From Candidatus Omnitrophota bacterium (GTDB lineage Bacteria > Omnitrophota > Gorgyraeia > 1-14-0-20-64-10): a DNA stretch of 64,000 nt. The notes below the pieces were generated by a model. The model worked only from the letters and a program-made list of their open reading frames with translations, had not been told where the DNA came from and made no database searches. The stretch covers positions 42,263 to 106,262 of the forward strand of contig JAHFFE010000002.1 in the NCBI GenBank assembly GCA_023248155.1, in the 5' to 3' direction. The first letter of the stretch is position 1. Each line of letters begins with the position of its first letter. This document shows positions 19,232 through 52,009 of the stretch, piece by piece. The translations under genes and the position numbers were made by a program.

Positions 19232-20015
19232 AAAAATCCTGATTAGCTTGGTTATTTTTGGCATGGCATCAACGGCGCTGGGCGCGGAATCAACGCGCTG
19301 GCCCTATCCGAAAGAATCGGGCCGGTATCAGGTGCGGCAGTTGTCCAACAACGCGATTCTCTGGACGATTGACTGGACTACCACCGTCACGCAGTCGTCC
19401 GGACATGCGCAAATTCAGATTACGGAAACCGGAGAAGGAAAAATCCCGAAATATAAACAGCCGGTCAAATGGACAAAACAATTTTCATTTAAAGAATCGG
19501 AGGGCGGCACGCTCTCTTTTGATGAAATGAAATCAACCCGCTCGCTTCAGAGTGGAGAGTTTGTGGATGCATCGACGGTCACCCGCGGTTCAGGCGGAAT
19601 CAGCTACCACGATGCCGAGAAGGGAAAGAAAGAAAAGCAGGGAAATTTCCCGGGCGGTCCCGATGTGTTGCCCGACGAGATGTTGTTTCATTGGGCGCGC
19701 ATGGTTCCGAAAGAGGGACCCTTGCCGCAGCCGGTGCGCGAAGCGCTTTTTATTCTATCCGCCGGCCGGGCCGTGACAATGCAGGCCCGCGTTGCGAAAG
19801 TGGAAACCGTTAAAGTGCCGGCCGGAGAATTTGCCTGCTACCGGATGGAGCTTGCACCCAAGTTGCCGGGCGGACTAAAAATGTTTGCCCCGAAAATGAC
19901 CATTTGGTGCCGGCAGGAAGCGCCCTATGCGTGGGTTCGCTATGAAGGGCCGCTGGGTGGAAGCCCCGGTGCCCCGCGCGCTATAATTGAATTAATGGAA
20001 TGGAGCCATCAATAA
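19224..20015 (+). CDS. Secreted hypothetical protein
   Basis: In-frame ATG at 19224 gives the signal peptide MNKKILISLVIFGMASTALGA. The track's 19071 start would overlap the aminotransferase. Confidence 0.5.
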   Translation: MNKKILISLVIFGMASTALGAESTRWPYPKESGRYQVRQLSNNAILWTIDWTTTVTQSSGHAQIQITETGEGKIPKYKQPVKWTKQFSFKESEGGTLSFDEMKSTRSLQSGEFVDASTVTRGSGGISYHDAEKGKKEKQGNFPGGPDVLPDEMLFHWARMVPKEGPLPQPVREALFILSAGRAVTMQARVAKVETVKVPAGEFACYRMELAPKLPGGLKMFAPKMTIWCRQEAPYAWVRYEGPLGGSPGAPRAIIELMEWSHQ

Positions 20016-20155
20016 TGAAGATCAAGTGTGACCAGTGCGAGCGCGCGTTCGATGATGTGCTGATGCAGATTTCGGATCAAAATGGACAGATTTTGTACCT
20101 GTGCCCGGAATGTTTCACGGGCCATGCCGAGCATCCGGCCGACGAACAACCCTAA
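20015..20155 (+). CDS. 46-aa zinc-ribbon micro-protein, translationally coupled (TAATG)
   Basis: MKIKCDQCERAFDDVLMQISDQNGQILYLCPECFTGHAEHPADEQP has two CxxC pairs. Its start codon overlaps the stop of the upstream gene. Confidence 0.45.
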   Translation: MKIKCDQCERAFDDVLMQISDQNGQILYLCPECFTGHAEHPADEQP

Positions 20156-20172: not shown

Positions 20173-20310
20173 GAGTCAGTCCGGGAGCGGGTCCGTGAAC
20201 GCGCTCGAAATCGACTACCGATTTCTCGCTCCGGTTTCGGCCTTACCGGAAACCCCGCTGAAACGGCCTCAACAGGGTTCACGCGACCCATCTCCCGAAC
20301 TGCCTCTTAC
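20173..20310 (+). repeat. Copy 1 of a ~137-nt element with imperfect 15-bp terminal inverted repeats (MITE/REP-like or structured RNA)
   Basis: Near-identical to 51873..52009 (only a few mismatches). Ends gagtcagtccgggag…ctcccgaactgcctc are reverse complements; internal hairpin cgaaatcg-actac-cgatttcg. Lies just 3' of a stop codon. Confidence 0.7.
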
Positions 20311-20478
20311 TCAGCTACGAAGCGGCTTCGGGTGACGCGGGCGGGAGAGGCCTCCGCCGCCACGCGCGCAGCGAAGCGAGCACGGACGGCGGAGAGTGTC
20401 CCCGAGCGGCAGGACCCGAAGCGACGGAGATTTCTGGTATGCCCGAGCCGAATTGAGCACATCCAAAGTTTATTTCGT

Positions 20479-20507
20479 TTGACAAAACCGTATAGGTGAG
20501 GTATTGT
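20479..20507 (+). promoter_or_regulatory. Sigma70-like promoter (TTGACA-17 nt-TATTGT)
   Basis: -35 TTGACA at 20479-84, 17-nt spacer, -10 TATTGT at 20502-07, in an AT-richer island. Confidence 0.5.
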
Positions 20508-25382: not shown

Positions 25383-25795
25383 CCATTCTAATCATTGAAG
25401 ATGAAGCGCAGGTCCGTGAATTGCTCGGCCGCCGCCTGCAGGCGCACAGCTACGAAACGCAGGAGGCCGAGAACGGCAAGGTCGGCCTTGAAAAGGCCAA
25501 ACAGCTGAAGCCCGAACTGATCATCCTTGATTTGAATATGCCGGAGATCGACGGAATCCAGGTTTATCAGCGGCTGCGCCAGGATCCGGACACCGCGAAG
25601 ATTCCGGTTCTTTTTCTGACCGCATTGTCGGCCGGTGGAACGATGACCGAGCAAAGCCTGGCGATTATCGCTTCGGCGAAGCACCGTGTGCAGTTGACGG
25701 GAAAATATGCCGTCATGGGTAAACCATATGATGCTCAGCAGCTGTTGGAGACGATCCGAAAACTGCTGGGGCAGGAGAGCGCGCCGGCGGTATGA
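25379..25795 (+). CDS. Single-domain response regulator
   Basis: ATGA overlap with the kinase. ILIIEDEAQ…ILDLNMPEIDG…K. Confidence 0.85.
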   Translation: MTILIIEDEAQVRELLGRRLQAHSYETQEAENGKVGLEKAKQLKPELIILDLNMPEIDGIQVYQRLRQDPDTAKIPVLFLTALSAGGTMTEQSLAIIASAKHRVQLTGKYAVMGKPYDAQQLLETIRKLLGQESAPAV

Positions 25796-27465
25796 AATCG
25801 ACCAAGCAGACCGATGAACGGCTCGTTGAAGAAGGGCTGATTACGCCGGAACAGCTGGCGAAGGCCCGCTCGGAAGCGCTGCGCGGCGGAGGCACCGTGC
25901 GCGAAGCGATCCTGCGAATGCGGTTTGTCGAGCCGTCGCGCATGGCCGACTGGCTCAGCCAGCAGCTGCAGATTCCGCGCGTGGAATTAAAATCGTACGT
26001 GATCGATTCGAAAGTTCTGCAGCTTGTTCCCGAGGCGCTGGCCCGCAAGCATCGCGTCATCCCGTTGTTTAAGGTAGGTAATTCGCTCACCGTTGCCACG
26101 GCCGATCCGCTGAATTTAATCGCGCTCGACGAACTGCATTTGAAAACCGCCAAAACGATCGAACCGGTTGTCGCCACCGATCAGGAAATTAATCAGGCGC
26201 TGGCCGATTATTACGGCACGAAAGGGCGCGTCGATGAGCTGGTGTCGGGGATGCCGGCCGAGACCGCCGCGGCGGAACTTCCTTCCGGCGCCGCTGCCGC
26301 GCAGAAAGCGTCGGACCCGCCTGTGGTGCAGCTGGTTAATCTGCTGCTCACCGACGCGGCCCGTTACCGCGCGTCAGATATTCACCTGGAACCCGAGCAT
26401 GAGGGGATGCGCGTCCGGTTCCGCATCGACGGAATTTTGCGCGAACAAACGGTGCTGCCCAAATCGCTGGAGCCGGCCGTTGTTTCGCGCATCAAGATTC
26501 TTGCCGGCATGGACATTGCCGACCAGCGCAAACCGCAGGACGGCCGTTTCCGGACGACGCTGGAAGGGCACGAGGTCGATCTGCGTATTTCGGTGATTCC
26601 GTCGATGGACGGAGAAACGGTCGTGATGCGTTTGCTGGATACGCAGGGCTTGCGCCTCGACATGAGCCAGCTGGGCATGGATGCCGACATGTTGGCACGC
26701 TACCAGCAGCTGGTTCAGCGCGCCTGGGGAATTTTGCTGGTGACCGGTCCGACCGGTTCCGGAAAAACGACGACACTGTATTCGACGCTGGCGTCGCTCA
26801 ATGCCGTCGAGCGCAACATCGTCACGATTGAAGATCCAGTCGAATATCGTTTGTCCGGCATCCGGCAGATTCAGGTGAATTCATCCGTGCAGCTGACGTT
26901 CGCCACCGGCTTGCGTTCGATTTTGCGTCAGGACCCCAACATCATCATGGTCGGAGAAATCCGTGACCGCGAAACGGCCGAGATCGCGATTCAATCGGCG
27001 TTGACGGGTCATATGGTTTTCTCGACGCTGCATACCAATGACGCGGCCACCGCCATTACACGGCTGCTCGACATGGGCATCGAGCCGTTCCTGGTCAGTT
27101 CCAGCTTGATCGGCGTGTTGGCCCAGCGGCTGGTGCGCACACTTTGTCCCGAATGCAAAACCGACGATCCGGCGCAGGAAGAAAAAGCGCGCAAGATGGG
27201 GTTCACCGGGACGGGTCACTGGATGAAAGCGGCCGGCTGCCGCCAATGCGGAAAAACCGGATACCGCGGCCGGATCGCGCTGTTTGAGCTGATGCCGATG
27301 GATGAAACGATTCAGAAAATGACGCTGGCCAAAACGTCGGCGTCCGATATCGCCACGCACGCGCATTCCGCCGGCATGAAAGCGCTGCGCGAAGACGGGC
27401 TGGCCAAGGCGGCGGCCGGAATCACGACGATCGACGAGGTGTTCCGCGTCGTCTCGGAGGCGTAA
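25792..27465 (+). CDS. Type IV pilus/T2SS assembly ATPase (GspE/PilB family)
   Basis: GspE N-terminal domain, Walker A VTGPTGSGKTTTLYS, Asp and His boxes, tetracysteine CPEC…CRQC zinc motif. Confidence 0.9.
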   Translation: MKSTKQTDERLVEEGLITPEQLAKARSEALRGGGTVREAILRMRFVEPSRMADWLSQQLQIPRVELKSYVIDSKVLQLVPEALARKHRVIPLFKVGNSLTVATADPLNLIALDELHLKTAKTIEPVVATDQEINQALADYYGTKGRVDELVSGMPAETAAAELPSGAAAAQKASDPPVVQLVNLLLTDAARYRASDIHLEPEHEGMRVRFRIDGILREQTVLPKSLEPAVVSRIKILAGMDIADQRKPQDGRFRTTLEGHEVDLRISVIPSMDGETVVMRLLDTQGLRLDMSQLGMDADMLARYQQLVQRAWGILLVTGPTGSGKTTTLYSTLASLNAVERNIVTIEDPVEYRLSGIRQIQVNSSVQLTFATGLRSILRQDPNIIMVGEIRDRETAEIAIQSALTGHMVFSTLHTNDAATAITRLLDMGIEPFLVSSSLIGVLAQRLVRTLCPECKTDDPAQEEKARKMGFTGTGHWMKAAGCRQCGKTGYRGRIALFELMPMDETIQKMTLAKTSASDIATHAHSAGMKALREDGLAKAAAGITTIDEVFRVVSEA

Positions 27466-27469
27466 ACCG

Positions 27470-28699
27470 ATGCCGACGTTTGCGTATCAGGCGCGCGATG
27501 AAGCGGGGCGGCTGGTGAAAGGGTTTCAGGAGGCGGAATCCCAGACTCTGCTGCTGCAGCAATTGCGCAAGGCCGGTTATTTAATCACGCGGCTGGAAGA
27601 AAAGACACAACAGAGTACGAGCTGGCTGCCTGACCTTCAGTTTGGAAAAAGGGTCGACGGGCAGGACCTGCTGATGGCTATTTTACAGCTGGCGAATCTG
27701 GTCGAGGCCGGACTTCCGCTGTTAACGGCGCTCAATACCGTTTGCGAGCAGTGGGCCGACGGTCCGCTGAAAGAGGCGCTCAGCGCCGTCGTGCGCGACA
27801 TTGAATCGGGCGAGAAATTTTCGCAGGCGCTCAAAAAGCATCCGCATATTTTCCCGAAATTAATGGTGAGCATGGTGATGGTCGGCGAGCAGACCGGAAA
27901 ATTGGACCTGGTGCTGATGCGGTTCTCGTCGTTTCTCGAACGGGACATGGCCGAACGCAGGGCGCTTCAGTCGGCTCTGAGTTATCCGATTTTGCTGTTT
28001 TGCGCCAGCATCGTGCTGGTGCTTTTCGTGGTGACGTTTGTGGTGCCGCAGTTTTCCGAGTTGTTCGTCAAGGCCGGCGTGCGGATGCCGGCGCCCACGC
28101 TCTTTTTATGCGGCGTCGGAAAATCGATCCGGCAATACTGGTGGCTCATGATTCTTTCGGTGCCGGCGGCCGGGGTTGGGGTTCCTCTGCTGATGCGCCG
28201 TCCCGATGTTCGCGCGTTCTGCGACCGATGGATTCTGAAAGTTCCGATATTCGGGAAGGTGATTTATCAGACGGTCATCCTGCGTTTCGCGCGCAGCCTG
28301 GCCACGCTGGTGGCCAGCGGCATCTCGATTTTGAGCGCGCTGGATACCGCCCGGGAAATGGTCGACAACCAGATGATCGAAGCCGAGCTCAAGCGCGTGC
28401 GCAGCGCCGTCGAGCGCGGCGAGAAACTGTCGGCGGCGCTGGCTGCCGGGAAAATTTTTCATCCCGACGTGGTGCAGATGGTCAAGGCCGGCGAAGAATC
28501 CGGCCGCATGGACGCGATGCTCGACAAGGTCGCCGATTTTTATGAGATGCGCGTTAATTTTTCATTGAAACAAATGGTTACTTTTCTGGAACCGCTTTTA
28601 TTAATGGGGATGGGAGGCATCGTCGTTTTAATTATGGCGTCTTTGATCTTGCCGATGTTTGATATGGTCAAGGTCTTACAAAATGGAGGGTTACGCTGA
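27470..28699 (+). CDS. Type IV pilus/T2SS inner-membrane platform protein (GspF/PilC)
   Basis: Two T2SSF repeats, three TM segments. ATGA overlap with the following gene. Confidence 0.85.
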   Translation: MPTFAYQARDEAGRLVKGFQEAESQTLLLQQLRKAGYLITRLEEKTQQSTSWLPDLQFGKRVDGQDLLMAILQLANLVEAGLPLLTALNTVCEQWADGPLKEALSAVVRDIESGEKFSQALKKHPHIFPKLMVSMVMVGEQTGKLDLVLMRFSSFLERDMAERRALQSALSYPILLFCASIVLVLFVVTFVVPQFSELFVKAGVRMPAPTLFLCGVGKSIRQYWWLMILSVPAAGVGVPLLMRRPDVRAFCDRWILKVPIFGKVIYQTVILRFARSLATLVASGISILSALDTAREMVDNQMIEAELKRVRSAVERGEKLSAALAAGKIFHPDVVQMVKAGEESGRMDAMLDKVADFYEMRVNFSLKQMVTFLEPLLLMGMGGIVVLIMASLILPMFDMVKVLQNGGLR

Positions 28700-29172
28700 T
28701 GAAAATGAGGCAACGTAAAATAAGCAAAGGGTTCACGCTGGTCGAGTTGATCATCGTGATCGCCGTGATCGCGATTTTGCTGGGCATCGCGCTTCCGCGG
28801 CTGCGCGGCATGATTGACGAAGGCAACTCCGCCCGCGCCGCTGCCGAAGTCCGCGCGCTGCAGGCGGCAGTCGAGTCTTTCTTTATCCATAACGCCCGCG
28901 TTTATCCGGCGGCCGGCGCGACCTGGGAAAACGCGTTAGTGGCCGCGAGCCCGCGGCTGATTGGCGCCGCGCTGCTCGATCCGTTTAACGGGGCTGTTCA
29001 ATATCAGTACGCGCTATCGGCCAACGGCCAGTTTTATGTAATCTCGTCGTTCGGCCCCAACAGGGCTGCAACGATTATCGGCATTGATAACACCGGCGCG
29101 GTCACTCCTGCGGGAGCTACCGGAGACGATATCTTCAGCTCGAACGGCACTCCGGGTAACGGCGGGTTTTAA
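28699..29172 (+). CDS. GspG-like major (pseudo)pilin with prepilin peptidase site
   Basis: KGFTLVELIIVIAVIAILLGIALP N-methylation motif. AAAEVRALQAAVESFFIHNARVYP resembles the GspG alpha-beta loop. Confidence 0.8.
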   Translation: MKMRQRKISKGFTLVELIIVIAVIAILLGIALPRLRGMIDEGNSARAAAEVRALQAAVESFFIHNARVYPAAGATWENALVAASPRLIGAALLDPFNGAVQYQYALSANGQFYVISSFGPNRAATIIGIDNTGAVTPAGATGDDIFSSNGTPGNGGF

Positions 29173-30153
29173 TTGGTAGTGGAGTTACTGCGAGGGAAGG
29201 GACGGCTCCAGCTGGTGCTTGGGGCCGTCCTGACCTGCGGCGTGGGGATCGCGTTGTCAATGGCCGCGCTGATGGTGCCCGAGCGTTTTGATGCCTGGCG
29301 CATCTACGCGTTCGGCGTGGGCGTTATTTTTTTCATGCTGGCCTATCTGATTTCCAGCTTTCGGCACGCTTCTAAAATCGAAACACTGGTTCTTGAACGG
29401 ACCGCTGAGTTGCAGGCGGCCAACCTGCGTCTGCTTGAGTTGGGAAAAATCAAGGATGAATTTGTCGCGGTGGTCAGCCATGAACTGCGCACGCCGATCG
29501 CCGTGATGCGCGAGGGGATCTGCCAGATGCAGGAAGGGGTTTGCGGTCCGATTACTCTGGAACAGCAGGCAACCATCGCGATCACATTAAGAAATCTCGA
29601 GCGGCTGCGCGAGCTGGTTGAGGATATGCTCGATATTTCCAAAATTGAAGCGGGAAAAATTGTTTTACAGCATGAAAAATTCGATTTTATTCAACTGGTT
29701 CGGGAAATCCAGAATTCTTTTTTGCCCCGTTCGCGCGAGAAAGAGATCGGCCTTGAATTGCATTTGCCGGGGCCGCATCTCTGGGTCCGGGCCGACCGCG
29801 CGAAACTGGCGCAGGTATTAACGAACCTGGTCAGCAACGCCATAAAGTTTACCGATCAGGGCGAGGTGCGCGTGACCGTGGAAGAGGACGCGCAACAGAT
29901 CCGGTGCGCGGTCTCCGACAGCGGCATCGGCATTTCGGACGAGAACATGCCCAAGCTGTTCCAGAAATTCCAGCAGTTTACGCGTCTCAGCAACGGTGAA
30001 AAAGGCAGCGGTCTGGGCCTGGCCATCTGCAGGGGGTTAATCGATCTGCATCAGGGCCGTCTCTGGGCCGAGTCGTCTTACGGAAAAGGAAGCCGTTTTA
30101 TTTTCAGCATCCCCAAGGGGGAAAACAGGGAGCCGTCCGCCGCCATCCGATGA
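29173..30153 (+). CDS. Membrane-anchored histidine kinase (2 TM, no periplasmic sensor domain)
   Basis: TTG start directly after the pilin stop (ATG 29260 is an alternative). H-box VSHELRTPIA, G1 DSGIGI, G2 GSGLGL. Confidence 0.75.
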   Translation: MVVELLRGKGRLQLVLGAVLTCGVGIALSMAALMVPERFDAWRIYAFGVGVIFFMLAYLISSFRHASKIETLVLERTAELQAANLRLLELGKIKDEFVAVVSHELRTPIAVMREGICQMQEGVCGPITLEQQATIAITLRNLERLRELVEDMLDISKIEAGKIVLQHEKFDFIQLVREIQNSFLPRSREKEIGLELHLPGPHLWVRADRAKLAQVLTNLVSNAIKFTDQGEVRVTVEEDAQQIRCAVSDSGIGISDENMPKLFQKFQQFTRLSNGEKGSGLGLAICRGLIDLHQGRLWAESSYGKGSRFIFSIPKGENREPSAAIR

Positions 30154-31274
30154 ACGAGTCGCCATTTGCCGTCAATCCGTTTTCGCGGGAAATCCGCGTT
30201 TTGCTGATCGAAAACGACCTGGCTGAAGTCCGCCGATTTAAAGAAGTACTCTCCGAGGCGGGAGAGAAATTATTTCCGGTCACCTGGGCCGATCGTATGG
30301 CCGAGGGTTTGAGCCGTATTTCGGGAGATTCCGTTGATCTGATCGCGCTTGGGCTTTCTCTGCCTGACTCGTCAGGAGCGGATCTGTTCGCGCGCGTCCA
30401 CGCGCAGGCGTCGCATCTGCCGATCGTGCTGCTGGTATCGGCCGCGCAGGAAACAGAAGCCCAGCAGGCCGTTCTGGCTGGCGCACAGGATTATCTAATC
30501 AGGGGAAAATGGGAATCGTCGGTTCTTCCGCGCGTATTGCGTTACGCGGTGGAGCGCAAAGCGGTCGAGCGGATGAAAGACGAATTCGTCAGCAGTGTTT
30601 CGCACGAATTGCGCACGCCGCTGGCGATCGTCAAGGAAGGCGTCAGCCTGGTTCTCGACGGAGTTTCCGGTCCGCTTACCGCCGACCAGGATAAAATCCT
30701 GAAAGTCGCCCAGGACAACATCGACCGGCTCGCGCGTATTATCGAGAACCTGCTGGATGTTTCGGAACTGGACCGCGGCCGCATGAAGCTGAAGATTCAG
30801 CCGATCGATATTTTTGATCTGATCCGAAAAAAAGCCGAACAGCTGGCGCCAAAAATCCGCGAGAAGGGCATCGAATTTTCAGTGCAGATCCCTTCTGAAA
30901 AAAAGATGATGGAAGCCGATCCGATCCGCGTCGAACAAATATTAACCAGCCTTTTGGGCAATGCGTTGAAATTCACACGTAAAGGTTCCATCGTGCTGTC
31001 GGTGACCGAAGAACCGGACCGTTTAATCTGCCAAATATCCGATACCGGCATCGGCATTGCGCGCGAAGATCTGCCTAAAATTTTCCGCCGGTTCCAGCAG
31101 TTTGGGCGCAAAGACGGCCCCGGCGAGCAGGGGACCGGGCTGGGACTGTGGCTTTCGCAGCAGTTTATCGAGCTTCATGGAGGATCGGTCTGGGTTGAGA
31201 GCGAACAGGGCCGCGGCACGCGCGTTTTCTTTTCGCTTCCGAAGCCGGTTGTTCCGGCGGTAGAACCGGCATGA
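30150..31274 (+). CDS. Hybrid receiver-histidine kinase (REC + HisKA + HATPase_c)
   Basis: N-terminal receiver (VLLIENDLAE…DLIALGLSLPDS…), then H-box VSHELRTPLA and DTGIGI/GTGLGL boxes. Confidence 0.8.
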   Translation: MNESPFAVNPFSREIRVLLIENDLAEVRRFKEVLSEAGEKLFPVTWADRMAEGLSRISGDSVDLIALGLSLPDSSGADLFARVHAQASHLPIVLLVSAAQETEAQQAVLAGAQDYLIRGKWESSVLPRVLRYAVERKAVERMKDEFVSSVSHELRTPLAIVKEGVSLVLDGVSGPLTADQDKILKVAQDNIDRLARIIENLLDVSELDRGRMKLKIQPIDIFDLIRKKAEQLAPKIREKGIEFSVQIPSEKKMMEADPIRVEQILTSLLGNALKFTRKGSIVLSVTEEPDRLICQISDTGIGIAREDLPKIFRRFQQFGRKDGPGEQGTGLGLWLSQQFIELHGGSVWVESEQGRGTRVFFSLPKPVVPAVEPA

Positions 31275-31663
31275 AAATCCGTCGGAATGCCGGTGGTTTT
31301 ACGCTGCTCGAGATGCTGATCGCGCTGGGCATTTTAATGACGGGTGTTCTTGCGACGGTCTACCTGGTAAGCCGCGGCATTGCCGCGACGAATGATACCG
31401 AGTCCACCGAGCAGGCGCTGGCATTGGCGCAGCAGCGGATGGAAGCGCTTCGCTCGGGCGCTTATGCCGCGATTGTCAACGAACCGCGTGCCGCCGTGGC
31501 CGGCTGGGTTAATTTCGACCGCCAGGTGGTTGTAGCACAGCCGGCCGGTACCGGTGTGAGCAATCAGATTCGCCAGGTCACCGTTACGGTATTTTGGCCG
31601 ACGACCGGCGGCGAGCAGAACCTGACATTAACCACCTATGTCTGCAATGTCGTCAATAACTAG
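31271..31663 (+). CDS. Minor pseudopilin (prepilin-type N-terminal domain)
   Basis: GGFTLLEMLIALGILMTGVL. Confidence 0.75.
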   Translation: MKIRRNAGGFTLLEMLIALGILMTGVLATVYLVSRGIAATNDTESTEQALALAQQRMEALRSGAYAAIVNEPRAAVAGWVNFDRQVVVAQPAGTGVSNQIRQVTVTVFWPTTGGEQNLTLTTYVCNVVNN

Positions 31664-32180
31664 GCGGTCGCGCGGCGTCAGTCTGCTTGAATTGATTTTG
31701 GCGGTTGGTCTTTTTTCTGTACTGCTGATTGCGCTGTTCGGTGTTTACCGGATCATTTTTATCTCGACCACGTCGGTTCAGGACCGGATGCAGCTGCAGC
31801 GGAGCGCCGAGCATGGCCTTGAAAAAGCGATCCGCGATTTGCGTACCGCGGTGGCGCTGCAGAACGATCCGAGCAACGCGATCCGGTACACGCTTCAACA
31901 GGGCGCTGCGCAGAATTCGTTTATTTTATATCTCTACAACGCGGCCGACCCGTTTCTGCCGCCTTACACGCAGCCGACGTATGAACTTCGGCAGGCGCCC
32001 GTCGCCGGCGCGATTGGCGGCGCGTTTGTGTATGGCGCCGGCACGCTGTTGGTGCGCGATGTTCAGCCGCCGCCGGCATCGGTTATTCAGGTTGCCGGAA
32101 CATTGGCAACGCTGGATCTCAGCGTGACGCGGGGAAACGAAACTTACCGTCTGGTTAAACAGGTCAGGCGCAGAAGTTGA
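31638..32180 (+). CDS. Minor pseudopilin (prepilin-type N-terminal domain)
   Basis: RGVSLLELILAVGLFSVLLIAL; overlaps the preceding gene. Confidence 0.65.
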   Translation: MSAMSSITRRSRGVSLLELILAVGLFSVLLIALFGVYRIIFISTTSVQDRMQLQRSAEHGLEKAIRDLRTAVALQNDPSNAIRYTLQQGAAQNSFILYLYNAADPFLPPYTQPTYELRQAPVAGAIGGAFVYGAGTLLVRDVQPPPASVIQVAGTLATLDLSVTRGNETYRLVKQVRRRS

Positions 32181-33073
32181 TGCGCGCCTCTGCGCAGCGC
32201 GGAGTGGCGCTGGTGATGGTGATGGCTTTTTTGATTCTGTTCGCGACGATGGCGACATTTTTTGTTTTCACGGCCTCTGTTTTCGTAAAGAACAGCGGCT
32301 GGGAGCAGGTGGACCACCAGGTATTCTGGATTGCGGAGGCCGGTTTGCAAAAAGCGATTTGGAATTTGAAAACGCCGGTTGCCAGCGGTGGGCGGGGTGA
32401 GCTCTGGACAACGGCTGGAACTCTGGAAAATTTGGCCAATGGGAACTATACGATGGTGGTTGAGGCCTGGGATTACGCACTTGCCGCCAATGGGGCCACT
32501 GCGGTGTCCGTACCACCCACTGTTGTCAATCCCGCTTCTAATGCGATTGATGGCAACGGCGCTACTTTCTGGGAGTCCAGTGGATCACCTGTAATCACTC
32601 AACAAGATTTAATCATCACACTGCCTTATGCGATTACCGTGAATCGGTTGCGGTTCTTAGCGTTTAGTACTCCAGCGTTTCCACAAAACTACATTCCGCG
32701 GGATTATAGTTGGGCTGTTTCCCCAGACAACGCGGTTTGGACGCCTGCTTTACCCGCGATTACCAACAACACCAGTGCTGACAGTGATCTTGCCGTTCCA
32801 CCGGCTTTAGCTGTGGGCGGGCCGGCGGATGTTTTTCCCGCTCAGACGAATGTGCGGTTTGTCCGTTTGCGGACGACGCGGGATGGTGTCGGGGCTCCCG
32901 CGCGCGCGCGTGTCATTGCTCTGGAGATCAACGGCCGGCGGATTACTTCCACGGGCCGGATTACGACCGGCGGGGTTACCATTGCCAGGACTGTCCGCCA
33001 AACGGTTGTCACCGACGACGCGCTTCCTCAAAATCAAGTGGCTTATTACCAGCCCGACTGGACGGAGCAGTAG
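32177..33073 (+). CDS. GspK/PilX-like minor pseudopilin carrying a discoidin (F5/8 type C)-like domain
   Basis: RGVALVMVMAFLILFATMA leader region. Central NAIDGNGATFWESSG…QDLIITL…YSWAVSPDNAVW matches the discoidin-domain pattern. Confidence 0.6.
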   Translation: MMRASAQRGVALVMVMAFLILFATMATFFVFTASVFVKNSGWEQVDHQVFWIAEAGLQKAIWNLKTPVASGGRGELWTTAGTLENLANGNYTMVVEAWDYALAANGATAVSVPPTVVNPASNAIDGNGATFWESSGSPVITQQDLIITLPYAITVNRLRFLAFSTPAFPQNYIPRDYSWAVSPDNAVWTPALPAITNNTSADSDLAVPPALAVGGPADVFPAQTNVRFVRLRTTRDGVGAPARARVIALEINGRRITSTGRITTGGVTIARTVRQTVVTDDALPQNQVAYYQPDWTEQ

Positions 33074-33075
33074 CG

Positions 33076-34653
33076 ATGGCCGAACGAATTTTAGCGCTTG
33101 ATCTGGGAACCGAATCGTTCAAACTGCTGACGGCTGAGGAGCAGGCTGGTTCATGGGTCATCACGCATCTGGGTTCCAAAGAGATTCCTCCCGGCGCCAA
33201 TGACGCGATTCGTCTGCAGGCCTTAAAAGAATTAATCGGCGAGATTCAGTTAAAACAATTCCGCACCGTCGTCAGCGTGCTGGACGATTCTTTTTCATCT
33301 GTGCGCCAGATTTACACGCCGCCGATACCGGCATCGGAACTGCTTTCAGCGGTCCGCTGGGAAATGCAGAATTTTCTGGCGATCCCTCCGGAAGAAACGG
33401 CGGTTGATTTAATTTCTTTGGGCACGGTTGATTTAGGCGGCGTTACCAAACAGAGGCATATCGCGGCGGCGGTCTCCGTCGAGGCGGTCCGCAATCATTG
33501 CGCGCTGCTGGCGTCGGCCGGCATTCGTCCGTCGCAACTGATCCCGAAAAATTTAGCGCTCGCTCTCTGCGCCGAAAAGCTACAGCCGTCTTCGGCCGAT
33601 CTGCCCCGCGTTATTTTGGATATCGGGTCGTCTTCGGCCGAATGCGTCGTGCAGGAAGGGCTGTGGCCGGTGTTTGCGCGCAGAATTCCCGGCGGATCGC
33701 AGGGGCTGACGCGCGAGATGAGCGGCATGATCGTTTCGGGCCAGGGGCAGGTGGCGCTTACGGCCGATGAAGCCGAACAGTTAAAACGCCGCGTCGGGAT
33801 CCCTTCAAGGGACGCCGGAGACCTGGGCGTCAAAGGGATTTCCGGCATGCAGCTTTTTTCGCTGATGCGCGCCTGGCTGGACCGCCTGGCCGTTGAAACC
33901 GAACGCTCGGTCACTTTTTATGGTGAGACTTCCGGCCGCAATGCCGTTGCCGAAATTATTCTGCTGGGCGGCGGCGCCCATCTGCGCGGATTGCCCGAAT
34001 GGCTCTCGGAACGGCTCGGGGTCCGCGTGAGCGTTCCGGCCGGATTAACGGGTGATCAGGCCGTTTTCGGAAAATTTCCGTCTGTCCGGGGCGTGGAATG
34101 CGCTTACGCGGCCGTTCTGGGTGCTGTTTACGGCGAAGGCAAAGGCCTGAATCTTTTACCGGCTGAAATACGCGAAAAAACAAAACGGACGGTTCAACGG
34201 ATGGCGGCCGCGGCGCTGGGCGCCGCTTTCGCGGTGGCGCTGATCGTCGGCGGCGTAGGCTTGCGATTGTATCAGCGTAATTTACGGGGACAGATCGCCG
34301 CGATGGAAATCGAAGCCGCTTCGACTAACCAGCGCTGGGCTGATTTAAAAGAATATTTGTCGGCCCGGAACCGCATTATCTCCGAACCGCGCTGGCGTGA
34401 TTTTTTAATGGAGTTAAGCCAAGCGACCCCCGCTCAAATAAAGCTCTCTTCGTTGACAGTGGATGAAACCCGCCAGGTCACGCTGCGCGGAGTTATTCAT
34501 GCCGGGCCGCGCTCCGTGCAAGATCTGATGGCCGATTATTTGCGCGTGCTGCATGGCCGCTCATTAACTCAGGTCGAATTGCGACGGACCCGCCGTACGG
34601 ATAATGATTCGGCTGAGGCGGAGTTTGAAATCGGAGGCCGCTTACTGCCATGA
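33076..34653 (+). CDS. PilM-PilN fusion protein (actin-like ATPase + bitopic N component)
   Basis: N-terminal ILALDLGTESFKLL (PilM/FtsA-like). Internal TM (AAAALGAAFAVALIVGGVGL) followed by a PilN-like coiled coil. Confidence 0.7.
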   Translation: MAERILALDLGTESFKLLTAEEQAGSWVITHLGSKEIPPGANDAIRLQALKELIGEIQLKQFRTVVSVLDDSFSSVRQIYTPPIPASELLSAVRWEMQNFLAIPPEETAVDLISLGTVDLGGVTKQRHIAAAVSVEAVRNHCALLASAGIRPSQLIPKNLALALCAEKLQPSSADLPRVILDIGSSSAECVVQEGLWPVFARRIPGGSQGLTREMSGMIVSGQGQVALTADEAEQLKRRVGIPSRDAGDLGVKGISGMQLFSLMRAWLDRLAVETERSVTFYGETSGRNAVAEIILLGGGAHLRGLPEWLSERLGVRVSVPAGLTGDQAVFGKFPSVRGVECAYAAVLGAVYGEGKGLNLLPAEIREKTKRTVQRMAAAALGAAFAVALIVGGVGLRLYQRNLRGQIAAMEIEAASTNQRWADLKEYLSARNRIISEPRWRDFLMELSQATPAQIKLSSLTVDETRQVTLRGVIHAGPRSVQDLMADYLRVLHGRSLTQVELRRTRRTDNDSAEAEFEIGGRLLP

Positions 34654-35159
34654 AACTTAAAAACCCGAAGCCGGCCGCCGCCGCGGGTCTTATTTTTTCC
34701 ATACTGATTCTGGTGATCGGTTATCTGCTGCCTGCGGCCGACATTCAGGCTCTATTGCGCCAGAAAAAACAGATTCAAATGACCGTGGATCAAGCAACTG
34801 ACGCCGTCCGTCCCGCGCGCGGTTCTGAATTCCGTGAACTGCCTTTACAAGAAGAAACTCCGGAGTTGTTTAAGCGTTTTTACCGGCTGGCTGAACGGCA
34901 CCGGGTTCGCGTGATGGAGTTCTCGCCGCGCATCGTTTTGCCCGGAACGGCCGATCAACCGGCCGTTCTTCCCATCGATATTCAGATGGAGGCCGCTTAT
35001 TCCGACGCGGGAGACTTTATCGGAAAGCTGACGACGGATCCGGAAATGGGGATTGTTTCCGTCCGCCGAATCGATATGGTTCCCGATGGCGAAAATAACG
35101 GACAGCTGCGGCTGTCCGTCGTGGTAGAGTTTTGTTTGAAAGCCGATAGCAATGCGTGA
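34650..35159 (+). CDS. PilO/GspM-like bitopic protein
   Basis: N-terminal TM, coiled coil, ferredoxin-like C-terminal part. Position directly after pilMN. Confidence 0.5.
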   Translation: MKLKNPKPAAAAGLIFSILILVIGYLLPAADIQALLRQKKQIQMTVDQATDAVRPARGSEFRELPLQEETPELFKRFYRLAERHRVRVMEFSPRIVLPGTADQPAVLPIDIQMEAAYSDAGDFIGKLTTDPEMGIVSVRRIDMVPDGENNGQLRLSVVVEFCLKADSNA

Positions 35160-40528: not shown

Positions 40529-41926
40529 TTAATTACCGGCGCCGGTATTGCGCGCCAGTGCGAAGAACGATTCGGCCACATCTTCGGCCACCTGCCCGTT
40601 GCGGATCAAATCCATGATGGAACGCTCCAGCGTGTACATCTTGGCGTTTCCACCGGTTTCAATCACGGAAGGCAGCTGGGAAAGAGTGCCGTTGCGGATA
40701 ATGTTCCGGCCGGCCGAGGTGGGCACGAATACCTCGGTGGCGAGTGCCAGCCCGCCCTCAAGCGCTTGTTCGCGCGGAATCAGGTACTGCGTCAAGACTC
40801 CCTGAAGACAGCTGGCCAGCTGGAAGGTTGCTTGCTGGCGCTGTTCCGGCGAGCAAATAGTCGCGAACCGGTCGATCGCCTGCACGGTGTTGGTGGCGTG
40901 GAACGACGCGAGCACCAGCGTGCCGGTTTCAGCCGCGTTGAGAACTACCTGCGCCGTTTCAGCGTCATCGACCTCACCGACGACAATGACATCGGGGTCC
41001 TGCCGCAGCGCGCGGCGCACGGCCTCGGCGAATGACAGCGTATCGGAACCCACCTCGCGCTGTTTGATCACCGCTTTTTTGTTTTGGTGAATATATTCAA
41101 TCGGCCGCTCCAGGCAGATGACGATGGCATCGCGATCTTCGTTGATCTGTTCCACCAGGCTGTTGAGCGTCGTTGTTTTTCCGGACCCCGTCGGGCCAAC
41201 CACCAGAATCAGGCCGCTGTTTTTGCGCGTCCAGTCAATGACTACCGACGGAAGCCCCAGTTTTTCCCAATGGGTTACTTTCGCCGGGATACTGCGGATT
41301 GCTGTCTCGACCTGGCCGCGCTGCCAATGCACATTCAGGCGGAACCGTTGCGTGACCGAGATCGAGTAGGCCAGATCCATCTCCCGCTGTTTCTCAAACA
41401 TGCAGATCTGCTCATCGGACATGACACTATAGACCAGCGAACGGATCTCGCCGGGTTTCAAAATTGGAAACTTCATCGGCTTGAGCCGTCCGCGCACGCG
41501 CGCGATCGGCGGGCTGTTCGTGGTTAAATGCAGGTCGGAACCGCCCATTTTGATTAATTCTTCCAGCAGGTTGCGGATATCCATCGTTTCCAGCCGCTGC
41601 AAGATTTCGATGGCGCTGGAAGGATCGATTCTTTCGAACTGCAGGCCAAGCCAATATTTTTGCGCCGGGATTTTTTCTTCCACGCGAATGACGCGGCAGT
41701 TGGCCAGCAATGTTTGATTGTACCCGGGAACATGCAGCTGCAACCGTATCGCCGCGCCGATTTCCACAGGGGAAGCGGTGTTAATGAGCGCGCCGGTTGA
41801 GCTGACATTAACGGTGGTGGAGGGAAGCAGTACTCCGAAAGGAGCACCGTCTTTCAGCAGCTGATACGCTGCCACATAGGCCAGTTGGGCGCGATACGCG
41901 CGCGATGTTTCAGTAGTGTTCGCCAT
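40529..41926 (-). CDS. PilZ-domain/PilT-family retraction ATPase fusion
   Basis: N-terminal ~110 aa contain RAYRA (RxxxR) and NVSSTG ((D/N)xSxxG) c-di-GMP-binding PilZ motifs. C-terminal part is PilT-like (Walker A VVGPTGSGKTTTL, Asp box, His box). Confidence 0.75.
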   Translation of the reverse strand: MANTTETSRAYRAQLAYVAAYQLLKDGAPFGVLLPSTTVNVSSTGALINTASPVEIGAAIRLQLHVPGYNQTLLANCRVIRVEEKIPAQKYWLGLQFERIDPSSAIEILQRLETMDIRNLLEELIKMGGSDLHLTTNSPPIARVRGRLKPMKFPILKPGEIRSLVYSVMSDEQICMFEKQREMDLAYSISVTQRFRLNVHWQRGQVETAIRSIPAKVTHWEKLGLPSVVIDWTRKNSGLILVVGPTGSGKTTTLNSLVEQINEDRDAIVICLERPIEYIHQNKKAVIKQREVGSDTLSFAEAVRRALRQDPDVIVVGEVDDAETAQVVLNAAETGTLVLASFHATNTVQAIDRFATICSPEQRQQATFQLASCLQGVLTQYLIPREQALEGGLALATEVFVPTSAGRNIIRNGTLSQLPSVIETGGNAKMYTLERSIMDLIRNGQVAEDVAESFFALARNTGAGN

Positions 41927-44023: not shown

Positions 44024-44028
44024 AGGGG

Positions 44029-44054
44029 GGAACTTTTTCCTGAACAAGGGGTCT
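44029..44054 (+). promoter_or_regulatory. ECF-type promoter P1 (GGAAC-N17-GTCT) in front of the sigma gene; probably autoregulated
   Basis: -35 GGAAC at 44029-33, 17-nt spacer, -10 GTCT at 44051-54, only 2 nt before ATG 44057, which implies a leaderless mRNA. Confidence 0.55.
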
Positions 44055-44056
44055 TT

Positions 44057-44641
44057 ATGAGTGACGCGGAGCTGGTTGAACAAGCGCGTGCCGGAGACCG
44101 GCAGGCATTTGATCAACTGATGCAACGCTATGAGCGCGAAATGATCGGCGTGGCCTATCGAATGCTGGGCCACTCCGAAGACGCGGTCGATTTGGCACAG
44201 GAGGTGTTCTTGCGCGCCTGGCGCGGGCTCGGCCAGTTTCGCGGCGAAGCGTCGTTTCGCAGCTGGCTTTACCGGATCGCGCTCAATCTGGCGCGCAACA
44301 AACGCCGGTGGTACGCGCGCCATCGGATTGCTTCGATGGTTTCATTAAGCCCGTCCGACGAAGAGACCGAAGAAGGGGACCCTGCGCCGGTTGTACCGAT
44401 CGCTGACCCCTCGACGGATCCGCGTGCCGAGGCGCAGGCGAGTCAGTTTCAGGAAGCGGTGCGGCAGGCGTTGGAAAAACTTCCGGCGGAATTTCGGGAA
44501 ACGGTGATATTAAGGGATATTCAACAGTTGTCGTATGAGGAAGTCGCGCAAGCGACCGGACAACCGGTTGGAACGGTCCGGTCGCGGTTATCCCGCGGCC
44601 GGCATTTGCTGCGGGAAGCGTTAAAAGGAATTTATCCATGA
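44057..44641 (+). CDS. ECF (group IV) sigma-70 factor
   Basis: Region 2 (…DLAQEVFLRAWRGLGQFRG…SWLYRIALNLARN) and region 4 HTH (LSYEEVAQATGQPVGTVRSRLSRGR). Confidence 0.9.
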   Translation: MSDAELVEQARAGDRQAFDQLMQRYEREMIGVAYRMLGHSEDAVDLAQEVFLRAWRGLGQFRGEASFRSWLYRIALNLARNKRRWYARHRIASMVSLSPSDEETEEGDPAPVVPIADPSTDPRAEAQASQFQEAVRQALEKLPAEFRETVILRDIQQLSYEEVAQATGQPVGTVRSRLSRGRHLLREALKGIYP

Positions 44642-45591: not shown

Positions 45592-45598
45592 ATTTTTG

Positions 45599-45624
45599 GG
45601 AACTTTTTCTTCCGCCCGGTGTCT
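45599..45624 (+). promoter_or_regulatory. ECF-type promoter P2 (GGAAC-N17-GTCT) before the precursor-MNIO operon
   Basis: GGAAC at 45599-603, GTCT at 45621-24. About 55 nt including the 5' UTR and GGGAGG Shine-Dalgarno are nearly identical to P3. Confidence 0.6.
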
Positions 45625-45653
45625 GCATCAGTAGAAAAGGGAGGAATAAACCA

Positions 45654-46934: not shown

Positions 46935-46937
46935 CCG

Positions 46938-46963
46938 GGAACTTTTTCCTCCGCCCGGTGTCT
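46938..46963 (+). promoter_or_regulatory. ECF-type promoter P3 (GGAAC-N17-GTCT) before the 639-aa secreted protein gene
   Basis: GGAAC at 46938-42, GTCT at 46960-63; near-duplicate of P2 including UTR and Shine-Dalgarno. Confidence 0.6.
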
Positions 46964-46991
46964 GCATTAGTAGAAAAAGGGAGGAACGACG

Positions 46992-48911
46992 ATGACTATT
47001 CAAACAAAGATTTTCGCGATTGCGGTGGCAGCGGTAGCGTGGATTACAGCCGGCCAGTCTTTTGCCGAGGCAACGACCGAGCCGTATTCATTGGAGCAGG
47101 GCCGTTATTCCGCGGTTGTCGACGGGGAAAAAGTTAAAATTCAGGCGGCGCTGGAATTCAAGGTGCTTGAAGACGGCCTGATCCAGATTCCGGTTTCGTT
47201 TGGCGGCGCCGAAATTCTGGATCTGAAATTATCCGGAGGATCCGCCGTGTTGGCGGTTGAGAACGACCAATACACGGTTCGGATTAGCCGCAAAGGAACC
47301 GTTCGGCTGACGGCCATGTTGATCGTGCCGTTGTCGCGCAATGCGGATCAGGAAGGGTTTTATCTCGAGATTCCGCAGGCGGTTTTTTCTTTCTGCACGG
47401 TCACGGTTCGGCGCGCCAGCGTGCAGTTAAGTCCTAATTATGCGGCCGCCGGAACCAGTCAGACCCGCGGCGATCAGACGATCATTACGCTGCCGTTGGG
47501 CTTAAAGCGGCAGGCCCAGGTTTTCTGGACGGTCCGCCCAATCCAGGAAACGCCGAAAACAACAGAACCGGTGGAGCCGGTTTATTTGGCGAATCTGCAG
47601 CTGCTGGGCACGCTGGAAGAAGAAACATTCCGTTGTTTGGCCACCGTTGATTTGCATCTGCTGCAGGGCGAATTAAAAACGGCTTTGTTCGAGCTGCCTT
47701 CGGGCTGGACCGTTACCGGGGTGCGCGGGGGTTCCGGCATTGCGGATTGGAAGACCGAGGCGGCCGGTTCGAATCAGCAGATCACGGTTATTTTCAACCA
47801 GCCGTTCAAGGAGGGGAACCTTCGTCTGCTGATTGATGCCGAACAACCGCTGAGCAGCGGCAGTGCCTCGGTTTCTTTGCCGAGTATTATTCCGGTCGGC
47901 GCAAAACGGTTAACGGGCCAATTGGCGCTGGCAACGGCCACGGCCATGGAATTGAAAGATCCGGTGATGGAAGGGGTCAAGCGGATCGATGTCCGGGAAT
48001 TGCCCGACGAATTGCGCGCGATGGCCAACGCGCCGGTCGTGGCGGCATTTCGTTATATGGAAGCCCCTTACCATGTGACGACCCAATTAATCCGTCCCGA
48101 AGAATTGCCGGTATTGGTGGCGATCGCTGAATCGGGAGAGTTAATCACGGTGGCTGCGCCGACGGGTGAAACCATTACGCGCGCGATTTATCAAATCCGT
48201 AATAACAAAAAAACAACGCTGAGCGTCACACTGCCGGCGGGGTCTACGCTCTGGTCGGTGCTGGTCGACCAGCGTCCGGTGAAGCCGTCGGCCGGACCGC
48301 GCGGGCAGATTCAAATTCCGATCATGAACAACCATGGTCCGGAAACGGTCTTCCCGGTGGAAATCGTCTATGTCCAGAAAACCGGTTCATTGAAATCGTT
48401 ACTTGGCCAAGTCCGTTACGAAGGTCCCGGCCTCGATATCCCGGTCACCGTTTCGTCCTGGAAACTGCTTTTACCCGACGGATTGATAAAGATCGGTTAT
48501 TCCGGCAATGTAGAAGCTGGTTTTTCGGTGAACACGGTGCCAGTCGAATTGGCTGCTTATCGCGATGTTTCGGCGAATGCGGCGCTCCGACGGGACTCTG
48601 CCCGATGCCAAAAAGTATTAGCCGCTGCTCCGGCAGCGCAGTCGTTGGCCGATTGCGAGTATAAGGTAAAGGAAGAATTTCAGGAGGTGGTTGGTAAAAC
48701 TCAGCAAACCGGCGTGCTGCCGTTCCGGATTTCAATTCCGCAGAGCGGCCGCGTTTACCGGTTTGGCCGGTTGCTGGCCGTCAACGAGCCGATGTCGGTC
48801 CAGATTAATTATGTCCGGACATCCGCAATGCCGTTCGCCAGCGGCGGAATGGTGTTTGTTGGATTGATGGGGCTGGCGGGTGTTGCCCGGCTGGTTCGTG
48901 CCAAGAAGTAA
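46992..48911 (+). CDS. Large secreted beta-rich protein with C-terminal TM anchor; member of the ECF regulon
   Basis: Signal peptide MTIQTKIFAIAVAAVAWITAGQSFA, C-terminal GGMVFVGLMGLAGVARLVRAKK. No catalytic motif recognised. Confidence 0.55.
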   Translation: MTIQTKIFAIAVAAVAWITAGQSFAEATTEPYSLEQGRYSAVVDGEKVKIQAALEFKVLEDGLIQIPVSFGGAEILDLKLSGGSAVLAVENDQYTVRISRKGTVRLTAMLIVPLSRNADQEGFYLEIPQAVFSFCTVTVRRASVQLSPNYAAAGTSQTRGDQTIITLPLGLKRQAQVFWTVRPIQETPKTTEPVEPVYLANLQLLGTLEEETFRCLATVDLHLLQGELKTALFELPSGWTVTGVRGGSGIADWKTEAAGSNQQITVIFNQPFKEGNLRLLIDAEQPLSSGSASVSLPSIIPVGAKRLTGQLALATATAMELKDPVMEGVKRIDVRELPDELRAMANAPVVAAFRYMEAPYHVTTQLIRPEELPVLVAIAESGELITVAAPTGETITRAIYQIRNNKKTTLSVTLPAGSTLWSVLVDQRPVKPSAGPRGQIQIPIMNNHGPETVFPVEIVYVQKTGSLKSLLGQVRYEGPGLDIPVTVSSWKLLLPDGLIKIGYSGNVEAGFSVNTVPVELAAYRDVSANAALRRDSARCQKVLAAAPAAQSLADCEYKVKEEFQEVVGKTQQTGVLPFRISIPQSGRVYRFGRLLAVNEPMSVQINYVRTSAMPFASGGMVFVGLMGLAGVARLVRAKK

Positions 48912-48991
48912 AAAGAGTGGGCTCCCTGACCAGGTTTTCAGGGAGCCCGGTTCTTTGTTCTTTTTGATTCTCTGCGTGGTAAAATAACAGT

Positions 48992-51839: not shown

Positions 51840-51872
51840 ACCCCGCGCTTCCCGTCGATAAACTGTGATTCG

Positions 51873-52009
51873 AGGCAGTTCGGGAGCGGGTCCGTGAACG
51901 CGCTCGAAATCGACTACCGATTTCTCGCTCCGGTTTCGGCCTTACCTAAAACCCCGCTGAAACGGCCTCAACAGGGTTCACGCGACCCATCTCCCGAACT
52001 GCCTCTTAC
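51873..52009 (+). repeat. Copy 2 of the ~137-nt inverted-repeat element
   Basis: Perfect 15-bp terminal inverted repeats (gaggcagttcgggag / ctcccgaactgcctc). Same orientation as copy 1, again directly 3' of a gene, and next to two tRNA genes. Confidence 0.7.

Follow-up and report, generated by a model that had tools for sequence, protein, structure and literature searches.

A probable family of palindromic intergenic repeats restricted to one lineage of Candidatus Omnitrophota

A sequence of little more than 130 nucleotides (nt) stands twice, each time just behind a gene, in a 64,000-nt stretch of Candidatus Omnitrophota DNA (contig JAHFFE010000002.1 of assembly GCA_023248155.1, positions 42,263 to 106,262; hereafter the window), and the question raised by this pair is what kind of element it represents: a piece of a duplication, a mobile palindrome, a structured RNA or a coding sequence. 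Our analysis covered the 64-kb window and some 50 kb of related contigs, ~100 kb in all, and the account that we find the more probable is that the two 134-nt sequences are members of a lineage-restricted, non-coding and non-autonomous palindromic repeat family (134-182 nt), akin to the repetitive extragenic palindromes (REPs), bacterial interspersed mosaic elements (BIMEs) and miniature inverted-repeat transposable elements (MITEs) of other bacteria. The family comprises at least two sequence types, its units as a rule have a second palindromic module and unit fragments attached to them, and it is distributed over multiple loci within one group of Candidatus Omnitrophota genomes. A selfish repeat of the REP/BIME/MITE kind is preferred on account of this spread over several loci, the existence of sequence types, the mosaic clusters with truncated pieces, the restriction to one lineage and the absence from relatives.

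The two units, which we assign to a type 'mod1', occupy positions 20173-20306 (+; unit 1a) and 51872-52005 (+; unit 1b), so that both lie on the same strand, each measuring 134 nt and bounded by inverted repeats. When the TTAC that directly follows both of them is included (20173-20310 versus 51872-52009), 134 of 138 positions are identical (blastn E ~2e-63), and a 31-mer taken from the unit occurs exactly 2 times in the window, where shuffled sequence would yield 0. The terminal inverted repeat, GAGGCAGTTCGGGAG...CTCCCGAACTGCCTC, pairs perfectly in copy 2 (15/15 bp) and at 13/15 bp in copy 1, both of whose mismatches fall in the left arm, and its arms are comparable across all of the seven units that were aligned. 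Unit 1a begins 17 nt past the stop of a 51-aa CxxC...CxxC open reading frame (ORF; 20000-20155; Zn_ribbon_8 at E 0.007, under the Pfam cut-off), and unit 1b begins 32 nt past the stop of cobO (51839; PF02572). The initial annotation had described a nearly identical element of ~137 nt, present twice in the same orientation just 3' of a gene and carrying perfect or near-perfect 15-bp terminal inverted repeats, all of which these figures bear out; it was also right that copy 2 follows cobO, but not that this copy abuts the tRNA-Leu/tRNA-Ala pair, since tRNA-Leu(CAA) (52252-52335, minus strand) lies 246 nt further on and the gap is filled by further repeat modules.

With just two near-identical copies in 64 kb, one might suspect that the pair is mere part of a larger segmental duplication, or else a palindrome arisen by chance. 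The probability of either is, in our judgement, close to nil: the flanks are unrelated on both sides, the mean column identity of 76% over the whole alignment of the two copies with their flanks is owed to the unit alone, the match has an E value of ~1e-63, and the unit recurs at other loci with different neighbours. Discreteness, which the initial annotation had assumed, is confirmed most directly by 97%-identical units in two unrelated contexts on metagenome contigs from the same or from closely related Omnitrophota, namely 23 nt past an HhH-GPD gene (locus L006) and 25 nt past a tRNA-Ala(CGC) gene, where the unit faces a convergent LPG-synthase gene (L007/L008).

The extent of the family could be traced in part because gene callers have annotated a spurious ORF of 70-80 aa across the unit in several public assemblies (e.g. 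L001 4445-4561). The peptide of this ORF, used as query, returned four protein clusters (P0001-P0004), with DNA for two of them, and an exhaustive search of 1.84 billion representative proteins added just two more diverged copies (P0127 and P0128) and no others, for which reason we regard the family as narrow. Altogether some 12 distinct copies, including 3 units in the window, stand at five or more unrelated loci in the sequence read. No real match was returned by GTDB representative genomes (exact 32-mer, and a gap pattern of left arm plus right inverted repeat), by JGI metagenomes (exact 29-mer, and a degenerate pattern of hairpin 1) or by viral contigs (two patterns), and where these pattern scans gave matches at all, they were chance matches without interior similarity or a covariance-model score. 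Likewise, blastn of the composite against plasmids and phages gave no match, and the literature searched held no comparable repeat for Candidatus Omnitrophota.

The cobO locus allows the presence of the unit to be compared among relatives. The named matches among CobO homologues, at 77-83% identity, are metagenome-assembled genomes (MAGs) of Omnitrophica/Omnitrophota, which places the organism in Candidatus Omnitrophota. The closest homologue, at 93% identity, comes from a JGI metagenome (L009) in which a unit 83% identical to copy 2 starts 18 nt past cobO, with a second unit behind it that is inverted and belongs to a different sequence type ('type C'); across the whole of cobO, the DNA of the window and of L009 agrees at 87% of positions, and at third codon positions at 70%. 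The two units behind cobO are possibly orthologous, and the short spacers between stop codon and unit do not align. Relatives with CobO identities of 83-85% (L010/L011, L012-L014 from GCA_023818545.1, and L018-L020) carry no unit between cobO and the tRNAs, from which we conclude that the repeats are confined to one sub-lineage. These relatives keep the order accA, cobO, tRNA-Leu, tRNA-Ala, leuS, and the interval from cobO to tRNA-Leu is occupied either by a minus-strand response-regulator gene or by a Pyr_excise gene; the corresponding interval of the window (51840-52251) lacks the response-regulator gene and is filled by the repeat mosaic. In L009, synteny breaks right after the repeats, cobO and its repeats being followed by a Gly-zipper gene, an extracytoplasmic function (ECF) sigma factor and an anti-sigma factor. 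Repeat clusters thus coincide with synteny breaks or rearrangement. As a separate observation, the repeat marks the end of two short and independent assemblies of the cobO locus, one from ENA (L001, MEGAHIT k141) stopping at position 4561, 5 nt past the unit, and one from Logan (L002) at position 927, inside it; these ends may be assembly breaks caused by the repeat, and coverage or strain variation could also account for them.

The claim that the element is present twice needs to be extended, since a third, diverged member had been missed. A covariance model (R1) built from seven units scores all of them at 118-158 bits: units 1a and 1b reach 157.7 and 157.5 bits, and the two L009 units and a third unit in the window fall within 118-128 bits. 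This third unit (unit 2, type C; 54977-55158, +; R1 119.2 bits, E 6e-24) measures 182 nt and has the same architecture, with a 46-nt internal insertion and the inverted repeat GAGTCGGCTCGTGTAT...ATATCCCGATCCGCCTC; it starts 39 nt past the leuS stop (54937) and lies upstream of a promoter-like site at 55214-55242. It was reached through the right end of the L009 type C unit, which matched a weak repeat match of the window (family D4). Another D4 match, at 56257-56283, lies inside a giant ORF, has no support from the covariance model and was taken as chance. Even with filters off, R1 brought up no additional unit in the window, nor did it find one in the other loci examined; a match at 48903-48965 turned out on inspection to be an ordinary intrinsic terminator and no unit.

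The units do not stand alone. Unit 1a is followed by TTAC and an 'alpha' linker, TTACTCAGCTACGAA (20307-20321, +; read from the sequence as TTACYCAGCWACGRAGCSGCTT), which resembles the linkers after the L009 unit and after the unit at 54977-55158, and then by module 2A (20322-20425, assigned to neither strand), a GC-rich imperfect palindrome of 104 nt with the arms GCGGCTTCGGGT...ACCCGAAGCGAC and an independent closed fold. Module 2A sits in the slot that the inverted unit holds in L009, and it is found again beside a mod1 unit in another contig, as the ORF translation of P0002 indicates. The far end of the cluster is formed by an apparent remnant, ATGCCCGAGCCGAATTGAGC (20439-20458, -), whose reverse complement resembles the unit 5' end (compare GAGTCGGCTCGTGTAT at 54977). 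Unit 1b has in its left flank a short fragment, GCGCTTCCCGTC (51845-51856, +), that resembles an arm of module 2B, and similar fragments occur at 54951-54966 and in the left flank of the L006 unit. On its right come TTAC with a 'beta' linker, TTACCGATTCTTGCGTG (52006-52022, +; the same linker in L006 and a shorter one in L007), module 2B (52023-52180, -), an imperfect palindrome of 158 nt with the arms AGCGATTCCGTGCAGG...CCTGACGGAAGCG and its own closed fold, and a far-end remnant, GAATGCCCGGACTGACTTG (52211-52229, -), whose reverse complement CAAGTCAGTCCGGGCATTC matches the unit 5' end, with a 12-nt exact match to 20174-20185. Both mod1 clusters of the window hence close with a short sequence that, reverse-complemented, resembles the start of a unit. 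Behind leuS, a solo fragment of the module 2B arm, CGCTTCCGTCAGGCAA (54951-54966, +), stands directly after the stop codon (16/16 match to 52163-52178 on the opposite strand, E 0.005), and the type C unit is followed at 55159-55192 (+) by an alpha-type linker and what seems to be a truncated start resembling module 2A, TACCCACGCAGGCGCTTTGGTGACGCGGGTGATG, the weak similarity including an 11-nt exact stretch, GGTGACGCGGG.

The second modules are themselves repeated. Module 2B is 97-99% identical to copies beside mod1 in L006 and L007/L008 (three loci in all), the L006 copy showing a compensatory T-A to C-G change in the hairpin CTCCGCT...AGCGGAG, and the translations of P0001, P0003 and P0004 run on into the sequence of 52010-52112, just as that of P0002 runs on into 20330-20440. 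The minus strand of module 2B aligns end to end with R1 at a weak 15.9 bits (E 5.6e-4 locally, 0.14 over the whole window), so to judge from its sequence it may be a distant unit in inverted orientation; an inverted doublet is clear in L009, which has a forward and an inverted unit, and the second modules of the window are palindromes that are weakly unit-like (the same 15.9 bits). What the initial annotation had taken for flanks with merely weak similarity (20311-20480 versus 52010-52240) are accordingly repeated palindromic modules, and its 137-mer, although a discrete repeat, is not the whole of the element: repeat units, second modules and unit fragments together make up mosaic clusters.

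Folded as RNA, both strands of the units give a closed and branched structure, with a 15-bp outer stem (13/15 paired in unit 1a), a second stem of ~12 bp and three inner hairpins, one of which is CGAAATCG-ACTAC-CGATTTCG. The minimum free energies of -63 to -80 kcal/mol correspond to z scores of -5.2 to -7.5 against dinucleotide shuffles, in agreement with the strongly self-complementary interior noted initially. A test for compensatory mutations, likewise proposed initially, found eight base pairs changed on both sides in the seven-sequence alignment, as opposed to 2.6 +/- 1.3 in column shuffles (0 of 500 reached eight) and 0-2 in slid controls. The compensatory changes are spread over three helices and include, in the L009 unit, AAATCG...CGATTT to AAATGG...CCATTT in hairpin 1 and CG...CG to TT...AA in the second stem, and three unpaired junctions are invariant in all seven aligned units (CGCTCG before hairpin 1, CGCTC after it, and CTT after the paired GGCC of the inner helix). 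With about four independent sequences among the seven, the covariation is supportive of a conserved structure and short of conclusive.

These features raise the alternative that the units are primarily a functional structured RNA, i.e. a lineage-specific, multi-copy cis-acting element of 3' untranslated regions (3' UTRs) or a family of small RNA (sRNA) genes, the branched fold of which would be recognized by a protein or a ribonuclease and whose spread would be secondary. The compensatory changes in three helices, the invariant junctions, the complex multi-branched fold and the fixed placement 17-39 nt past the end of a co-oriented gene all speak for it, as does the L009 copy behind cobO, which at 83% identity is more conserved than synonymous sites (70%). 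On the other hand, Rfam at gathering thresholds matched the two tRNAs alone, and even at E<=10 it yielded two chance matches of the miRNA type and nothing else; no copy was found outside one narrow lineage among GTDB representatives, JGI metagenomes, viral contigs, plasmids and phages; the cobO locus is devoid of the unit in relatives whose CobO is 83-85% identical; clusters built as mosaics, with truncated fragments and solo arms, characterize selfish repeats and not RNA genes; the units have no promoter or terminator of their own that we could find; and the more stable fold lies on the strand opposite the upstream gene. We consider a primary RNA function possible, if doubtful. The conserved structured RNA acting as terminator, stabilizer or sRNA that the initial annotation had offered as its alternative is shown by nothing in these results, the units having no U-tract and no Rfam match. 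An antisense RNA, which the strand asymmetry might call to mind, was set aside and not used as evidence, the asymmetry being largely explained by the G-rich left arm and carrying little weight either way.

Could the repeat instead encode a small protein, as the ORF called by gene callers in several assemblies (MNALEIDYRFLAPVSALPKTPLKRPQQGSRDPSPELPLT...) would have it, or be an integron attC site, which likewise is an imperfect palindrome of ~130 nt 3' of a co-oriented ORF? Both are very improbable. The reading frame is broken in L009 by a 1-nt insertion, with a stop after 30 codons, in a unit that keeps its base pairing, and at different loci the ORF runs into different downstream modules. As for attC, the core motifs RYYYAAC/GTTRRRY are absent (the nearest candidate being CGTGAAC...GTTCACG), the upstream genes are housekeeping genes (cobO, leuS, tRNA-Ala) 3-32 kb apart that form no cassette array, and no integrase was found among the window ORFs scanned. 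Template and variable repeats of a diversity-generating retroelement, and a retron, were also rejected, there being no reverse transcriptase in the ORFs scanned, no adenine-specific differences and no cassette array.

If the units are mobile, the mechanism has to be read from their ends. The description of the element as MITE- or REP-like and mobile holds insofar as it is a dispersed palindromic repeat, but the hallmark of a MITE, a target-site duplication, is missing. Classical MITEs would be deletion derivatives of an insertion sequence with a DDE transposase (e.g. of the IS5/IS630 type) that shares the 15-bp inverted repeats and moves them in trans by cut-and-paste, and the units indeed resemble MITEs in their terminal inverted repeats, which are perfect over 15 bp in copy 2, their small size of 134-182 nt, their lack of coding capacity and their dispersal, as several near-identical copies, at five or more unrelated loci. 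In L009, the inverted type C unit even has TTAAA directly on both sides (1737-1741 and 1881-1885), an ambiguous observation for which a 5-bp target duplication and a longer palindrome (TTTAAA being self-complementary) are equally good explanations. By contrast, no direct repeat is present at the ends of the six forward mod1 and type C units, whose left flanks are T-rich (TTC, CTT, ATC, TTT) and whose right flanks read TTAC in five cases, with TTAA or TAC also listed. Moreover, in four copies of 97-98% identity the left arm varies at four positions and the right arm is invariant, which is unexpected for one transposase that binds two equivalent ends; the interior is conserved and covarying, as a MITE would not need; and no parent insertion sequence with matching inverted repeats was seen in the ~100 kb searched, exact matches to the inverted-repeat pattern in GTDB representatives being due to chance. 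A classical MITE is quite unlikely on these grounds. Owing to the missing duplication, the strong hairpins and the asymmetrically conserved ends, a route via enzymes that recognize single-stranded hairpins (HUH/Y1 transposases, similar to those of IS200/IS605 or to the REP-associated tyrosine transposases, RAYTs), or else recombination or gene conversion, would be more likely than DDE cut-and-paste. No RAYT (Y1 transposase) gene or TnpA was found in the ~100 kb read.

What the repeats might do where they stand is suggested by their position. All six units with known context start 17-39 nt past the end of a co-oriented gene or tRNA, and the second modules and fragments lie on the distal side of the units. 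Behind the units at 20173, at 54977 and in L009 the following gene points the same way; behind those at 51872 and in L007 it is convergent. No terminator-like site lies between stop codon and unit, and in a scan for promoter and terminator sites the units had neither of their own; sigma-70-like promoters of the next genes are situated just past the clusters, at 20479-20507 and 55214-55242, and a promoter-like site of the tRNA operon (52472-52444, minus strand) faces the cobO cluster from the other side. The family has spread into several intergenic regions of one Candidatus Omnitrophota group, and since every cluster begins this close to a co-oriented gene and no ordinary terminator intervenes, the first unit of each cluster is most probably transcribed within the 3' UTR of the upstream gene as a stable stem-loop. 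By analogy with REP, enterobacterial repetitive intergenic consensus (ERIC) and Correia sequences, this stem-loop might stop 3' exonucleases, hinder transcription from running on into the next transcription unit, or both, roles that position alone suggests. Elsewhere in the window, an intrinsic terminator at 48911-48965 (+), GGGCTCCCTGA...TCAGGGAGCCC followed by a T-run, stands directly after the ORF 46992-48911, which indicates that the genome uses classical terminators where repeat units are absent.

Structured intergenic repeats are familiar from Proteobacteria, Neisseria, Firmicutes and cyanobacteria. Among them, the Correia elements of Neisseria, also called Neisseria miniature insertion sequences (NEMIS), and the ERIC elements of enterobacteria, also called intergenic repeat units (IRU), are bacterial MITEs with long inverted repeats that act as RNA elements: they measure ~100-160 nt, have terminal inverted repeats or form an imperfect palindrome overall, lie between genes with which they are co-transcribed, and as RNA stem-loops can affect termination, processing and mRNA stability. 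The Omnitrophota units are similar to this description in being palindromic, intergenic and of comparable size, and in their predicted co-transcription with a neighbouring gene and folding into long RNA stem-loops. Correia elements, however, duplicate a TA and carry inverted repeats of 26 bp, and the Omnitrophota units show no duplication; the interior of the latter consists of three hairpins with conserved junctions, they are locked in orientation behind genes, and nothing in Rfam, plasmids or phages matches their sequence.

The likeness to REPs extends to location. REPs are found mainly behind coding regions where the next gene is co-directional or convergent, frequently form pairs of opposite orientation and may plausibly be transcribed, the unit being a short palindrome of 20-40 nt with a GTAG or CGTC tag (Di Nocera et al. 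2013, PMC3733652), and REP doublets (REPINs) form hairpins and constitute the replicative unit (Bertels & Rainey 2011, PMC3116915). In the same manner, the Omnitrophota units are extragenic, non-coding and without target-site duplication; they lie downstream of genes (six of six), between co-directional or convergent genes; they are predicted to form hairpins in single-stranded DNA or mRNA; and there are several sequence types per genome. A pair in opposite orientation is clear in L009, and in the mosaics of the window the second modules may be inverted units. They differ in being branched and 134-182 nt long instead of simple palindromes of 20-40 nt, in being flanked by TTC...TTAC with no consistent unpaired GTAG/CGTC at either end, and in a copy number that appears low (3 units in 64 kb). 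A further parallel is offered by non-autonomous elements derived from IS200/IS605, the palindrome-associated transposable elements (PATEs), which HUH/Y1 transposases mobilize (PMC6006769): the Omnitrophota units share with these the lack of a target-site duplication, strong hairpins, asymmetric ends, a short conserved flank at one end (TTAC) and an orientation consistent with the likely leading strand. Their hairpins, in contrast, span the whole unit and are not subterminal, and a cleavage or target motif is putative, so that the analogy is mechanistic only. Being four to five times larger than REPs, branched, and without GTAG/CGTC tags or target-site duplication, the family is best filed as a structured intergenic repeat in the general sense, and neither as a REP nor as a MITE in the strict sense.

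Several points weigh against a family of mobile, non-autonomous repeats whose first units serve as 3'-UTR structures. The same size, branching and missing tags that set the units apart from REPs count here, as does the missing target-site duplication. No transposase, integrase or reverse transcriptase was detected among the ~50 window ORFs scanned against Pfam, which upholds the initial remark that no transposase or integrase lies nearby, nor in the gene tables of L006 and L007; no clean pair of filled and empty sites at close evolutionary distance was found; and the ~12 copies stem from the ~100 kb of relevant genomes that were read. Mobility is accordingly a suggestion that comes from the distribution of the sequences. 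On the side of function, no U-tract or T-run follows the structure, so that the units are not canonical intrinsic terminators, and in all units the strand antisense to the upstream gene folds better as RNA by 7-17 kcal/mol, which is awkward for a purely sense-strand role in the 3' UTR; this asymmetry, in which A.C mismatches of the forward strand become G.U pairs on the reverse strand, arises largely because the left arm is G-rich. Most window genes and positive GC skew share the + strand, and the orientation bias of the units could reflect replication and not transcription. Finally, palindrome-templated repair could produce covariation without selection.

A broader possibility, which we judge unlikely, is that the ~135-nt branched stem-loop with its conserved junctions, orientation-locked 17-39 nt behind genes and tRNAs, represents a new class of structured nucleic-acid element peculiar to Omnitrophota, serving as a 3'-end or insulator RNA module, or else as the recognition structure of a single-strand transposition system that targets the 3' ends of genes, its homogeneity within the genome being kept by active copying or gene conversion. 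As the evidence stands, the class of element is known, this Omnitrophota family is new, and no new kind of system is involved.

Apart from the repeats, the window contains some features that deserve mention. Giant genes have been reported for Omnitrophota, and an ORF of that kind starts at an ATG at 55255 (+) and runs to the window end (64000) without a stop, i.e. over at least 2915 aa. A motif of ~44 nt starting GGGAACTTTTTC occurs three times (44028-44071, 45598-45641 and 46937-46980; 61-93% identical), each copy just upstream of a plus-strand gene, the genes behind it being those of an ECF sigma factor (44057, followed by a zf-HC2 anti-sigma factor at 44638), of an MbnB/TglH/ChrH-like enzyme for the modification of ribosomally synthesized and post-translationally modified peptides (45839) and of an unannotated 639-aa protein (46992); by its sequence and placement it looks like an ECF-sigma promoter, with the three genes as a small putative regulon. 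Sets resembling type II secretion systems or type IV pili (T2SSE, T2SSF, N_methyl pseudopilins, PilM and PilO) are encoded at 25792-35159 and 40529-41926 of the window and at 383-9832 of L007, and tandem paralogous histidine kinases at 29173-31274. A long inverted repeat, I1 (26737-26777 versus 41166-41206), lies inside two T2SSE-family genes (25792-27465, +, and 40529-41926, -) and probably reflects their shared ATPase motif.

A practical consequence of these findings concerns the public assemblies, in which the spurious ORF of 70-80 aa is annotated across the element, and the covariance model R1 could serve to mark this lineage. For the biology of the organisms themselves, much depends on the origin of the orientation-locked placement: if it reflects function, the family would show, in a tractable case from an uncultured phylum, how repeats come to serve as RNA structures at 3' ends; if not, it would be an ordinary selfish repeat.

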